Shown in pieces: positions 46,222 through 50,366 of a stretch of DNA of 64,000 nt (its first letter is position 1; the number at the start of each line of letters is the position of its first letter). The DNA is from Burkholderiaceae bacterium (GTDB lineage Bacteria; Pseudomonadota; Gammaproteobacteria; Burkholderiales; Burkholderiaceae_C), in the NCBI GenBank assembly GCA_016790575.1, contig JAEUOU010000006.1:56737-120736 (forward strand). Reading direction: 5' to 3'. Made by a program: the position numbers and the translations under genes. Below the pieces are notes generated by a model. The model saw only the letters and a program-made list of their open reading frames with translations, searched no databases and was not told the DNA's origin.

Positions 46222-46704
46222 TCAGGGTGCCCGGTGGGCCATGCGTGGGCGCAGCCAGGGCGCAACCAGCAGGCAGTCCATGGACCAGCGTCCCGGGCCA
46301 TACAGCGCCAAAGCGGCGAGCAACACGCCCCAGGTGACATGCAATTGCAGGGCGGCGGGGGCAATTTCCGCCAGGCTGATGACGGCCACCGCATTGACCA
46401 CCGAAAGCCCCAGTGCGCCCAGGCGTCCCGCCAGACCCAGAGCCAGCAGGACCGGCAAGACCAGTTCCCCGGCGGTGCCGGCCACTGCGGCCAGGGCAGG
46501 CGAAAGCCATGGCACCTGGTATTCATCGTGGAACAGGGCCAGGGTCGTATCCCAGTCGCGGACCTTGGCCAGGCCGGCGCTGAAAAACACTTGGGCGACG
46601 TACAAGCGCGCCAGCAGCGCGGCTGGCGCCTGGGCACCGTCGAGCGCGGCGCGAATGAGGCGCCACACGGATTCGCCGCGGTGAACGAGATGGGTCAAGG
46701 TCAT
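46222..46704 (-). CDS. DoxX-family membrane protein (bufferin-cluster BufD-like position)
   Basis: 160 aa. LLARLYVAQVFFSAGLAKV and about 4 TM segments are typical of DoxX. Confidence 0.7.
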   Translation of the reverse strand: MTLTHLVHRGESVWRLIRAALDGAQAPAALLARLYVAQVFFSAGLAKVRDWDTTLALFHDEYQVPWLSPALAAVAGTAGELVLPVLLALGLAGRLGALGLSVVNAVAVISLAEIAPAALQLHVTWGVLLAALALYGPGRWSMDCLLVAPWLRPRMAHRAP

Positions 46705-46749
46705 GAATAGGCTCCGGGGGATCGGGGGTGGGTTCAGTGGCAGGCCGGC

Positions 46750-47574
46750 TCAGTGGCGCACCGGCAAGGCGTGCGCGCCCAGCACCAGACCGCTTTGCAC
46801 GGCCGAGGGCAGCCAGGCGCCAAAGTCGAACGGCACACGGCTGGCTGCGGTAAGCGCCGGCTCCTGCGCCACGGCGGCAGTCAGCGCGGGTCCCAATGGG
46901 GTGCCGGCCAGCAAAGCGCTCAGCAAGGTCTGTTCACCGGGGCCGCAGTCGCGCACCACGGCGCGCAGGCCTTCCCGATACACCAGCGCCGTCTCGGTGG
47001 CGCCCTCGCGCAGGCGTGCCCCGGCCGTCTGCAGATCCGGGGGCGTCCTCTGGTGAGCCACCACCAGCGTGACCACCGGCCAGCGGCTGGCGATCAGAGC
47101 CAGGCCCGGGGCCAGGGTCAGCCCGAGCTGGTCCGGGTCGGTGTCGGTCAGGCGTGCGAAGCTGGCCGGGTCGGCGCTCGGGTCGGCCGCGGTTGCGGCC
47201 CGGTGCAGAGCCCATTCGACCTGCGCCACGTCGGCGAGGTACGGAACCTGCGCCAGCATGGGGTTGTTGCGGACGAAATCGGGCAAGTCCGTGCCCCAAT
47301 GGGCCAGATCACCGCACTCGGGTGGCCGCCGGTGCCAGAAGTCCCGCGCCAGCGCAGCGAAGTCCTCAGCACCGATCAGGGCCTGCAACACCGGGTAGGC
47401 GGCGGCCAGGGCACGCTCGGCCAGGGCATGGCCGTTGGCCCGGTAGGCGGCCAGGCCCCGGGCCGACGGGGGCAACACCAGCGGCAGGAGCCGTGCCGCC
47501 GCAGCGTCCGCGCCTCCCGGGCGATACAGGATGGCCGCCAGCAGCGCTTGCTGGGCCTGGGCCAGGGGCGTCAT
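46750..47574 (-). CDS. DUF2063 protein (partner of the DUF692 enzyme; BufC-like)
   Basis: [18 protein letters not shown], and its position immediately downstream of DUF692 with an ATGA overlap. Confidence 0.7.
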
Positions 47575-48512
47575 GCCGGCACCGCCTGTGCTGCCAGCTC
47601 CACCGCGGCCTGGAGCGCCTGCGCGGCGCTGTCGCGCGCCCGCCGTGCTTCATCGAGCAGCACCGGCAGCGGCGGAACGTCTGTGTCCCATTCGATCAGG
47701 GTCGCCACTGGGCCAAATCGTTTCAGCGCGTCGCCGTAGAGCTGCCAGACCGCGTCGCATACCCGGCTGCCATGGTCGTCGATGACGATGTCGCCGCAGT
47801 CACGGTGGCCCGCCAGGTGGATCTCGGTGACCAGATCGGGCGGGATCGACTCCAGCCAGGTCTGACATGCCTGCAGGGGCGTCACTCGGTCGTCTCCGTA
47901 CTGGCCGTTGAGTGCGTTGACGAAAAGATTGTTGATGTCCAGCAGCAGCGTACAGCCGGTCCGGCGGGCCAGTTCCGCGAGAAACCGGGGCTCGGCCATG
48001 TCGGCGTCGCGCCAGTGCAGATAGGCCGACAGGTTTTCGACGGCGATGGGCCGCCGCAGTCGTTCCTGTACCCGCTGCACGTTGGCGCACAGGGTGTCCA
48101 GCGCCTCGTGTGTGAAAGGCAGGGGCAGCAGATCGGCGCCGTGCACGGTCGGCGCCTGTGTGACGCCATCGCGCTGGCCGCGCGCGAAGCTGGCATGGTC
48201 ACTGACGCGGACCGGATCGATGGTGTCGACCAGGCGCGCCAGTTGATCCAGATGCCAGGCGTCGATGCCGTGCGCCGAGCCCAGCGACAGGCCCACGCCG
48301 TGAAGACTGACGGGGTAGGACTGCCGGGCCTGTCGCAACAGCGCCAGGCCGGCGCCACCCTCGCCGAAGAAATTCTCGGAATGGACTTCGATGAAATCCA
48401 GCGCCGGCAACTCCCGCAGCAAAGCCTCGTAATGCGGGTGGCGCCAGCCGATGCCAACGGCGACACCGCCCGCCGGCAGGGCGAAGGAGCGGGCGCGGTG
48501 GGCAGCGGTCAC
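47571..48512 (-). CDS. DUF692 multinuclear non-heme iron oxidative enzyme (MbnB/BufB-like)
   Basis: [36 protein letters not shown] and VSDHASF motifs. The GTG start at 48512 (8 nt after the precursor stop) is a best guess. Confidence 0.8.
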
Positions 48513-48520
48513 GGCGGGAC

Positions 48521-48802
48521 TCAGGCTTTCTTGGCCGCGGCCTTGGCTTCGTCGGCGCTCAGGCCGCCCATCTGCTTGCAGGTGCCTTTGGCCACGTATT
48601 TCCACTCGCCCTTGTCGTTGTCGACCTTCGATTGGCCGGCGCACGAATGGGTGCCGGCGAGGTTGGCGCAGTCGTTCTGTCCGGCCTTGGCGATGCCATA
48701 GCACTTTTCCTTGGCGGCGGTCTGGGCCAGGGCCGGGCTGCTCAGCAAGGCCAGCGACATCAGGGAGGTGGCGGCGGTGGCAATCAGGGTACGTTGGTTC
48801 AT
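48521..48802 (-). CDS. DUF2282 secreted Cys-containing peptide (bufferin BufA1-like RiPP precursor)
   Basis: 93 aa. Sec signal [26 protein letters not shown]. Core: [49 protein letters not shown], with four Cys. GGAGA RBS upstream. Confidence 0.75.
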
Positions 48803-48944
48803 GGTGATTCTCCAGAGTGGGAAGGTGGATACAGGGAAACGTTCCACAACCGGTGGCCCGTGCGGTTGCACATCGCTGCCGGTTGTGTGGGTCTGTCGGT
48901 CACCGGAGCCGCTTCTTACGCGATCGGAGGATTTTTTTCGCCGG

Positions 48945-49505
48945 TCACAGCAGGTCGGCAATCTGGTCCCAGGCCTCCGGCGCAATGCGCCCGGTCCATT
49001 GCTGCACCACCCGACCCTGCCGGTCGAGCAACCAGGTCGCGGGCAGGGGTTCGCGGCGGCTCAGGCCGGTGGCGGTGACCATGTCGCCAATCCACATCGA
49101 GGTCAGGCGCTGGCCCGGTGCCAGCGTGCGTGCGAGGATGGCTTCGTAGTCGGCGGCATCCTGCCGGCGGCGGTCCATGCTGAGCAACACCAGGCTGAAG
49201 GGCTGGTCCCGCCACCCGGCGGCGTTGCTGCGCAGCTCTGGCATCTTGTCGCGGCAGACGGCGCAGTCGGTCGACCATGCCACCACCAGGACCACCCGCC
49301 CCCGCAGGGCCCGCAGGTCGAATGCGCGGCCATCCAGGGTGCGGCCCGCCAGTTCGGCCACCGGGCCGGGCGCACCCGGTGAGCCGCCGGCCGGGGTGGT
49401 CGCACGGGCCCATTGGGGCGCGGTTGCCAGCGTCAGGGCCAGCGGCAGCGCCCTGGTCAGCCAGTGACGCCGTGTCGTCGGCAGGGGTCGGGTGGGGATG
49501 GACAT
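48945..49505 (-). CDS. TlpA-like thioredoxin-fold thiol:disulfide oxidoreductase (exported)
   Basis: Twin-arginine-like [17 protein letters not shown] signal and the [18 protein letters not shown] CxxC motif. ATG at 49505 chosen. Confidence 0.7.
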
Positions 49506-49566
49506 CGGTAACTCCGGTTGCAGGGCTTTGGTCGGCCCGGCGGCGGATTCATTACACTGCGCCGCC

Positions 49567-50151
49567 ATGTCCACCGCCGATTCGTCCCCGTTCGAGCACC
49601 AACTGGTGGAGCACCGCGCCTACCTGATGCGTTTTGCCCGATTGCAGTTGCGCAACGACGCCTGGGCGGAGGATGCCGTTTCCGAAACGGTGCTGGCCGC
49701 GCTGGCCCGGCCGCAGGCCTTCGGCAACCGCTCGCAGCTCAAGACCTGGCTGGTCGGAATCCTCAAGCACAAGATTGTCGATACCCTGCGTCACCACAGC
49801 CGTCAGGTCACCGTGGGCACCGGCGACGAGGACGAAGCGAGCGACCCGCTGGAGCTGATGGCGTTTCGCGGTGACGGACATTTCACCGAGCAGCCGGCCG
49901 ACTGGGGCGATCCGGAGCAGGACCTGCGCCAGCGCCAGTTCATGGCCGTGCTGGAAGCCTGCACGGAGAAACTGCCGCCGGTGCAGGCGCGCCTGTTCCT
50001 GATGCGCGAATGGCTGGAACTGTCCAGTGAGGAAATCTGTAAGGAACTGGGCCTGACTGCGACCAACCTGTATGTTCAGTTGCACCGCGCCCGTCTGCGG
50101 CTGCGCGAATGCCTTGATCTGAACTGGTTCCAGAACACCCGCCGCCCATGA
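49567..50151 (+). CDS. ECF (sigma-70 group 4) RNA polymerase sigma factor
   Basis: HRAYLMRFARLQLRNDAWAEDAVSETVL (region 2) and LSSEEICKELGLTATNLYVQLHRARLRLRE (region 4 helix-turn-helix). Confidence 0.85.
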   Translation: MSTADSSPFEHQLVEHRAYLMRFARLQLRNDAWAEDAVSETVLAALARPQAFGNRSQLKTWLVGILKHKIVDTLRHHSRQVTVGTGDEDEASDPLELMAFRGDGHFTEQPADWGDPEQDLRQRQFMAVLEACTEKLPPVQARLFLMREWLELSSEEICKELGLTATNLYVQLHRARLRLRECLDLNWFQNTRRP

Positions 50152-50366
50152 AGCCTTGGTATCCGTTTCGTCGCAGCTGCAAGGAAGTGACCGCGCTGGT
50201 CATCGCCCGGGAGGACCGCGCGCTGCCGTGGCAGGACCGGATGGGCCTGCGCCTGCACATGGCGCTGTGTTCGGCCTGCCCGCCCTTCGAGCGGCAGGTG
50301 CTGACCCTGCGCAATGCCATGCGCCAGTGGCGCGCCTACAGCGAAAACGACGAGACCAGCCGCTGA
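50148..50366 (+). CDS. Zinc-finger (zf-HC2-like) anti-sigma factor, short
   Basis: 72 aa. ATGA-coupled to the sigma gene. SCKEVTALV...HMALCSACPPFERQ (H-x3-C-x2-C). Confidence 0.7.
   Translation: MKPWYPFRRSCKEVTALVIAREDRALPWQDRMGLRLHMALCSACPPFERQVLTLRNAMRQWRAYSENDETSR

Follow-up and report, generated by a model that had tools for sequence, protein, structure and literature searches.

A putative Buf1-type bufferin cluster in a Burkholderiaceae bacterium and the predicted promoters of its divergent sigma/anti-sigma pair

The stretch of DNA analysed here, referred to below as the window, comprises 64,000 nucleotides (nt) of contig JAEUOU010000006.1 (positions 56,737 to 120,736 of the forward strand) of the Burkholderiaceae bacterium assembly GCA_016790575.1. 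Between positions 46222 and 50366 it harbours a bufferin cluster together with a pair of putative regulatory genes. The minus strand codes for the bufferin precursor BufA (48521-48802, 93 aa), the multinuclear non-haem iron oxidase (MNIO/DUF692) BufB (47571-48512, 313 aa), the DUF2063 partner protein BufC (46750-47574, 274 aa) and the DoxX-family membrane protein BufD (46222-46704, 160 aa), preceded by a gene for an exported thioredoxin-fold redoxin (48945-49505, 186 aa). Encoded on the plus strand are an extracytoplasmic function (ECF) sigma factor (49567-50151, 194 aa) and a cytoplasmic zinc-finger anti-sigma factor of the zinc-binding anti-sigma (ZAS) kind (50148-50366, 72 aa). Taken together, the data presented below make it very probable that the cluster specifies a Buf1-type bufferin (a captophorin) and is run by the ECF sigma factor, which is held by the small cytoplasmic zinc-binding anti-sigma. 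The cluster itself is an ordinary addition to a family of which thousands of clusters are known, whereas the promoter, the regulator type, the feedback promoter, the leader hairpin and the candidate regulon are computational inferences added by this analysis.

An earlier reading of this stretch, made from the letters and translations only (the sequence-only reading), had assigned the four buf products to DUF2282, DUF692, DUF2063 and DoxX. Searches with profile hidden Markov models bore this out: all domain calls were well over the Pfam thresholds, and BufB passed the equivalog model as well. BufA matches DUF2282 (PF10048) over residues 31-80 with 90.1 bits against a cutoff of 22.4. By inspection, its N-terminus is of the Sec type, with a basic n-region (R4) and a 17-residue hydrophobic stretch, and the signal peptide (residues 1-26) ends between ALA and QT, directly before the DUF2282 domain. 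The four cysteines of the core are found at positions 8, 19, 28 and 49, and their spacing of 11/9/21 is kept in 68 of 69 BufA orthologues; in BufA1 of Caulobacter they occupy positions 12, 23, 31 and 52, with a spacing of 11/8/21 (PMC11626156). As had been claimed, the GTG start codon of bufB (48512) lies exactly 8 nt past the bufA TGA, and the bufB stop overlaps the bufC ATG as ATGA (ggcATGAcg). BufB scores 317 bits with Pfam MbnB_TglH_ChrH (PF05114), passes the NCBIfam equivalog MNIO_BufB (NF050167) narrowly (316.4 bits versus a cutoff of 310) and matches the DUF692 protein of PDB entry 3BWW (E 6e-28), while sequence searches of PDB returned no match for BufA and none for BufC. The DUF2063 domain of BufC (PF09836, 67.5 bits) spans residues 6-101, with a weak match of the protein to the NCBIfam HvfC family. 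BufD is recognised by Pfam DoxX (PF07681, 55.6 bits) and reaches 59.5 bits with the NCBIfam HvfX family, under its cutoff of 80; a DoxX gene lies 3' of bufC in most of the related loci described below.

The sequence-only reading had stated that bufferins were described in 2024 and that their genes had earlier been known as gold- or copper-induced genes, and this is correct. The operons once named 'gig' for their induction by gold were shown to produce copper-binding peptides of the periplasm, for whose modification BufB and BufC are both required and together suffice, DoxX being dispensable (Leprevost et al. 2024, PMC11626156). The dissociation constant of Buf1 for Cu(II) is ∼6e-15 M, Cu(I) is bound more tightly still, and the peptide shields Caulobacter from copper (PMC11626156). 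Bufferins, oxazolin and gonophorin have since been placed together as 'captophorins' in a later preprint. The expected conversion of cysteines to thiooxazoles holds for the two central residues of the characterised Buf1, which become 5-thiooxazoles, but not for the first and the last, which form a disulfide (PMC11626156). By homology to Caulobacter Buf1, BufB and BufC of the window would turn the central BufA cysteines (core 19 and 28) into 5-thiooxazoles in the cytoplasm; the modified precursor would then be exported by Sec and its signal peptide cut off, the outer cysteines (8 and 49) would pair as a disulfide, and the product would chelate periplasmic copper.

The divergent ECF sigma and zf-HC2 anti-sigma genes were likewise found where the sequence-only reading had placed them. 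The sigma factor scores 289 bits with NCBIfam NF009173 (cutoff 255) and 222 bits with TIGR02943, and contains the Pfam domains Sigma70_r2 and r4_2; its stop codon and the anti-sigma ATG overlap as ATGA. The anti-sigma protein is matched by NCBIfam antisigmaE (60 bits, cutoff 50) and by zf-HC2 (27.9 bits), the latter being the only domain seen in the Pfam scan, with no match to NrsF (DUF1109, PF06532). Its residues Cys11, His37, Cys41 and Cys44 form a C-x25-H-x3-C-x2-C pattern that is present in 66 of 67 anti-sigma orthologues, whose median length is 70 aa. Because a soluble ZAS anti-sigma of this spacing is combined with a promoter consensus nearly identical to that of Neisseria (see below), the pair appears to be of the Neisseria MseR/Haemophilus HrsE type and not of the SigF/NrsF type, a placement made by the anti-sigma and the promoter. 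Membership of the sigma factor in ECF18 was rejected, since that group uses RskA-like membrane anti-sigmas. The text of the ECF reclassification paper and the supplements consulted contain nothing on DUF692, DUF2063 or DoxX contexts. As judged from RsrA, MseR and HrsE, thiol-reactive stress (Cu(I), Au, HOCl or disulfide stress) would disturb the zinc site formed by these four residues and thereby free the sigma factor.

A BufB scan with one genome per species yielded 80 related loci with 55-71% identity. All of them belong to Burkholderiales, mostly to Comamonadaceae (e.g. Hydrogenophaga, Polaromonas, Rhodoferax), and the gene order FtsY, anti-sigma, sigma, redoxin, bufABCD is common to the window and Hydrogenophaga genomes. 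The sigma/anti-sigma pair is divergent to bufA or to the redoxin gene in 62 of the 80 loci; of the 18 without a sigma match, about five are cut off by a contig end shortly 5' of the cluster. A redoxin gene stands between the regulator pair and bufA in 33/80 loci. Since the same order recurs at these frequencies, the arrangement seen in the window is not a matter of chance.

The predicted bufA promoter (48891-48919, minus strand) is of the ECF type and consists of a −35 element GTAAGAA (48919-48913), 14 nt and a −10 element CGACAGAC (48898-48891), the core GTAAGAA-N14-CGAC spanning 48919-48895. The corresponding motif, TGTAAGrA followed after 14-15 nt by nGACtaA, is located 75-135 nt 5' of bufA in 72 of 78 loci, and the consensus derived from these 72 reads cnnTGTAAGAAnn-N12/13-aGACtaAnc. 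A weight matrix built solely from the other genomes and then run over the window finds six sites of 18.4-25.0 bits, among them the putative promoters of bufA (18.8 bits), of the redoxin gene (22.9 bits) and within the sigma gene (24.8 bits). In 20 Markov-shuffled windows the best site scored 9.5-17 bits, with one at 22.6. In 1.72 Mb of sequence from related loci, 156 sites reached at least 18 bits: bufA accounted for 73, the interior of the sigma gene for 53 and the redoxin gene for 21, and 9 lay elsewhere, several of these preceding redox genes or a second MNIO cluster. The motif is thus highly specific, 147 of the 156 sites being at one of the three recurrent positions. Judging by this conservation and by the match to the Neisseria sigmaE consensus, RNA polymerase carrying the sigma factor would use GTAAGAA-N14-CGAC promoters before bufA, before the redoxin gene and, within the sigma gene, before the anti-sigma gene, and the same promoters probably also precede other thiol/redox genes in the window.

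A different promoter had been proposed in the sequence-only reading, namely that a GGAAC element upstream of bufA may serve this gene as an ECF −35 box. The element is indeed there (48845-48841, minus strand, 38 nt before the bufA ATG), and GGAAC is frequent as the core of ECF −35 boxes. Only 2 of 77 related loci, however, have it at the corresponding position, and it abuts the 3' arm of a conserved hairpin, base 48845 being common to both. Moreover, a 16-17 nt spacer would put the −10 element at ∼48824-48819 and the transcription start at or past the GGAG at 48814-48811, so that the bufA transcript would be left without its ribosome-binding site. On these grounds GGAAC was rejected as a −35 box, and with a different, strongly conserved motif 70 nt further upstream its role as the bufA promoter seems extremely improbable.

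The preferred promoter motif also occurs within the sigma gene itself (50039-50068, plus strand), in the codons for ICKELGLTATN, ∼109 nt before the anti-sigma ATG, and this internal site is present in 62 of 63 loci. Codon choice at the site is biased: cysteine is encoded by TGT in 58 of 61 loci (versus 17% in neighbouring genes), lysine by AAG in 61/61 (background 67%) and glutamate by GAA in 48/58 (background 44%), the direction being clear although the p-values are nominal and inflated by the kinship of the loci. In the window the sigma gene has no copy of the motif directed at it, and among the related loci one oriented toward the sigma-gene position was found in only three, all without a sigma match. 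Since rare synonymous codons keep the internal promoter in place, negative feedback is implied, and the simplest reading is that the site raises the anti-sigma alone; induction would then lift the anti-sigma but not the sigma factor and shut the response off. The E. coli rpoE-rseA genes provide a precedent for a sigmaE-dependent promoter within a sigma gene. As regards expression of the sigma gene itself, its start codon and that of the redoxin gene are 61 nt apart (49506-49566), a gap mostly filled by the redoxin promoter, and a scan of 45900-50600 for the sigma-70 consensus gave no promoter, including none for the sigma gene. With the gap occupied, the sigma promoter must lie inside the redoxin coding region, so that the 5' parts of the sigma and redoxin transcripts may overlap.

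The redoxin gene starts with ATG at 49505 and, in agreement with the sequence-only reading, lies immediately 5' of bufA on the same strand and encodes a CxxC motif (CAVC) and an export signal. The latter is twin-arginine-like (TRRHWL...ARA); among the orthologues, which share an invariant stretch of 17 residues, signals are of the RR type in the Hydrogenophaga group and Sec-like elsewhere. The description of the protein as TlpA-like was justified as far as the thioredoxin fold, CxxC and export are concerned (Pfam Redoxin and AhpC-TSA, ∼37 bits each), but not as a family assignment, the TlpA equivalog NF047696 giving 44.6 bits versus a cutoff of 230. The predicted ECF-type promoter of the gene (49526-49555, minus strand) has a −35 element GTAATGA (49555-49549), 14 nt and a −10 element CGAC (49534-49531), and a site of at least 18 bits precedes the gene in 21 of the 33 redoxin-bearing loci.

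The redoxin gene is the direct 5' neighbour of bufA in the same orientation, has a promoter copy of its own and belongs to a narrow subfamily (∼65 clusters, separated by a gap from generic homologues), which would fit a dedicated fifth bufferin gene whose product, for example, keeps the thiooxazole thiols or the cysteine pair reduced, or reduces Cu(II); a variable extra form of Buf1, lighter by 2 Da (−2 Da), has also been observed (PMC11626156). Such a role is nevertheless unlikely, as the gene is absent from over half of the otherwise identical clusters, e.g. in Rhodoferax, and Caulobacter Buf1 matures with BufB and BufC alone (PMC11626156). Three subfamily members with 43-49% identity were inspected: one adjoins an MNIO/DUF2063/DoxX set, and two occur away from buf genes, one in a catalase-DsbA row with the same promoter motif ahead and one in a DUF2064/Pyr_redox_2/PNP_UDP_1 neighbourhood. 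Owing to this patchy presence in the clusters and to the relatives in non-buf contexts, the redoxin seems to belong to the sigma regulon as a variable component and not to be a dedicated bufferin enzyme; it would act as a co-regulated periplasmic thiol reductase that is not obligatory for bufferin.

At the predicted start of the bufA transcript a hairpin is found, CACAACCGG...CCGGTTGTG (48887-48845, minus strand), the 3' foot of which carries the base shared with GGAAC. Its placement at the transcript start assumes a Neisseria-like spacing of the start site; in most loci the hairpin begins 7-10 nt past the −10 core. The folding energy of the window leader, −28.2 kcal/mol, is only modestly below that of shuffled sequences (z = −1.98), so that conservation has to carry the case for the hairpin. 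In 44% of the loci the stem scores above the 95th percentile of its shuffles, and clades with unrelated stem sequences still carry a hairpin at the same place. When the arms are anchored at ACC/GGT, 69.5% of the cells are paired versus 62.4% in shuffles (0 of 500 reach this value), and the covariation score amounts to 0.270 versus 0.160 for shuffled sequences and at most 0.134 with the partners slid; one stem position shows AU, GC, CG, GU and UA pairs. A search of Rfam at a permissive threshold over 46000-50600 gave chance-level matches only, the hairpin falling into no family, and the leaders of the other predicted promoters showed no unusual structure.

Most likely the hairpin is a 5'-terminal stabilising stem-loop, and we infer that the bufA mRNA probably opens with a stable structure guarding its 5' end and raising the output of the precursor. 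In the stretch from the hairpin to the ribosome-binding site a YYAACY motif is present in 48 of 77 loci, in many of them extended to TYAACCTGTC. Being a repeat of the hairpin's 5' arm, it could take that arm's place in pairing with the 3' arm; in the window only CCCTGTATCC stands at that spot (48815-48844, minus strand). This third copy of the 5' arm, along with the conservation of the arms in sequence (TCAACCrG/CyGGTTGA), could also be taken to mean that the inverted repeat is a DNA operator for a repressor rather than an RNA hairpin. An operator seems quite unlikely, however: the distance between the arms varies between 15 and 39 nt, an unusual feature in a dimeric operator, unrelated stems occupy the same position in other clades, and the paired positions covary.

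Apart from the three promoters described, the matrix marks further sites in the window. A divergent pair is located at 42658-42691 (minus strand, 25.0 bits) and 42729-42762 (plus strand, 18.4 bits). One site of the pair points at a gene for a 720-aa fusion of VTT/DedA and pyridine-nucleotide-disulfide oxidoreductase (40467-42629), followed by DUF547, and the other faces PNP_UDP_1 (42857-43735), followed by radical SAM with DUF3641, GT2 and DUF2064 (to 46088); the same divergent pair is present beside a radical SAM gene in related locus L005 (10210, minus, and 10224, plus). Another site, at 27742-27775 (minus strand, 23.4 bits), lies ∼100 nt 5' of a gene for an EgtD-like histidine methyltransferase (26645-27643; Methyltransf_33, 322 bits), with an EgtB-like FGE-sulfatase protein encoded convergently at 25098-26426. 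The EgtD-like target hints at ergothioneine-type thiol synthesis in the same regulon. In related loci L072 (1950 and 7370, plus strand) and L081 (3220, plus strand) the motif stands before a pair of genes for a periplasmic thioredoxin and CcdA, before a second MNIO cluster and before a row of catalase, tRNA_edit, redoxin, DUF1289 and DsbA, which suggests a regulon of periplasmic thiol and oxidative stress.

These candidate targets bear on the nature of the inducing signal. The system might chiefly serve against oxidative or hypochlorite stress, the ZAS sensing oxidants, the peptide, the redoxin and the remaining regulon members guarding envelope thiols and copper binding being secondary. The candidate regulon is redox in character, both here (the VTT/pyridine-nucleotide-disulfide oxidoreductase fusion and the EgtD-like methyltransferase) and in the related loci (catalase, DsbA, thioredoxin-CcdA), and the Haemophilus RpoE2/HrsE system, which controls MsrAB and a DoxX cluster, is induced by HOCl, H2O2 and paraquat (PMC2893595, PMC3240639, PMC7907618). 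This has some chance of being right but is the less probable view, given that Buf1 binds copper tightly and protects Caulobacter from it (PMC11626156), and that gig operons respond to copper and gold. The metal and oxidative readings are in any case compatible, because Cu(I) is itself a thiol stressor.

Several points weigh against a Buf1-type cluster run by the adjacent sigma factor. For this organism the support is computational throughout, and the inducing signal could be oxidative and not metal. The related loci are phylogenetically related, so that counts and p-values overstate their independence. The bufA promoter of the window has a lower score than the other promoters described, exceeded by the best site in one of the 20 shuffled windows. 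Alignment of the raw hairpin sequences with MAFFT/RNAalifold misaligned the 3' arms and gave no consensus structure, for which reason the arms were anchored and pairs counted, and the anchoring drew on pairing information and thus favoured structure. Finally, in C. metallidurans, where the sigma factor belongs to a different ECF group, attempts to tie gig to the neighbouring RpoQ did not succeed (PMC10304878, PMC13492112), so that adjacency alone is weak evidence of control.

A further-reaching view would combine the local extras (sensor, feedback promoter, RNA switch and redoxin reductase) into one coherent, undescribed layer atop the bufferin pathway. In such a layer the cytoplasmic zinc-finger anti-sigma could sense Cu(I)/Au directly on behalf of a metallophore that works in the periplasm, the concealed sigma-dependent promoter within the sigma gene could provide feedback through the anti-sigma alone, the hairpin with the downstream repeat of its 5' arm could represent a novel RNA switch acting in cis and not a passive stabiliser, and the narrow redoxin subfamily could be a periplasmic reductase keeping thiooxazole thiols active. 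That all of these hold jointly is very doubtful.

Two neighbouring features complete the description of the locus. A terminator-like site 3' of doxX (46162-46143) was no better than chance. The FtsY homologue encoded next to the anti-sigma gene (50377-51804, minus strand) has an N-terminal extension of ∼170 residues, which is rich in Pro, Ala and Thr and contains repeated TPAPTPAP units.

Bufferins are a widespread copper defence recognised only in 2024, and the way they are switched on is poorly understood. In the clade studied here the connection is unusually easy to trace: a specific motif before the precursor, redoxin and anti-sigma genes matches an experimentally studied Neisseria consensus and so offers a concrete, testable regulon and feedback design. 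It would follow that Buf1-type clusters can be driven by a thiol-sensing switch of the MseR/HrsE type as well as by SigF/NrsF, the regulators published for Buf1 clusters (PMC11626156). These regulatory additions leave the identity of the cluster unchanged.

Among characterised systems, the regulator pair resembles Neisseria sigmaE/MseR and Haemophilus RpoE2/HrsE, both of which have, like the window, a small cytoplasmic ZAS anti-sigma encoded directly 3' of the sigma gene, with the Cys/His spacing of Neisseria MseR the same as that of the window protein. The Neisseria sigmaE consensus, GTMAGBWTT-N12/13-CGTCTAAH, was obtained from 24 promoters, with an experimentally mapped start site as its anchor (PMC2893595, PMC3240639, PMC7907618); in the form GTAAGG..-N12/13-CGTCTAA it nearly equals the window motif. 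SigmaE/MseR controls NMB2140-2145, which includes a DoxX/DUF2063/DUF692 cluster, and trx-msrAB, while Haemophilus RpoE2, which shows little autoregulation, controls with its 67-aa anti-sigma HrsE msrAB and a homologous DoxX cluster (PMC2893595, PMC3240639, PMC7907618). The pairing of such a cluster with an exported thioredoxin-fold protein (Trx-MsrAB) is thus shared with the window. The precursors differ, being EGKCG-repeat peptides (gonophorin, oxazolin) in Neisseria and Haemophilus and a DUF2282 protein in the window. In addition, the Neisseria sigma gene lies inside an autoregulated operon, whereas that of the window is divergent, has no upstream motif and contains the internal, anti-sigma-only promoter. 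Streptomyces sigmaR/RsrA has Cys11/His37/Cys41/Cys44 numbering identical to the window anti-sigma and a regulon that includes thiol-redox genes, as is predicted for the window; RsrA is longer, however, the sigmaR motif and targets differ, and there is no RiPP (ribosomally synthesised and post-translationally modified peptide) cluster.

As to the cluster proper, buf1ABCD of Caulobacter vibrioides has the same four genes in the same order, with an ECF sigma factor encoded nearby, and its DUF2282 precursor has a signal peptide and four cysteines at nearly the window spacing (PMC11626156). It differs in being regulated by SigF and the membrane anti-sigma NrsF (ECF16), in contrast to the 72-aa soluble zinc-finger protein and the GTAAG..CGAC motif of the window, and in lacking the adjacent redoxin. 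The gigPABT operon of Cupriavidus metallidurans is, like the window cluster, a betaproteobacterial four-gene operon divergent to an ECF pair, and is induced by copper and gold; its RpoQ is assigned to ECF16, for which the consensus is given as −35 AATTCG and −10 GGTTAC (PMC13492112, Table 4), and the anti-sigma of the rpoQ-rsqA pair is membrane-bound, unlike the soluble protein of the window (PMC10304878, PMC13492112). No matching promoter was found 5' of gig, whereas a conserved one lies directly 5' of bufA in the window. The ECF16 consensus reads like the reverse complement of the Caulobacter SigF motif, GTAACC...CGAA, and if this is so, the missing RpoQ promoter at gig might merit re-examination.

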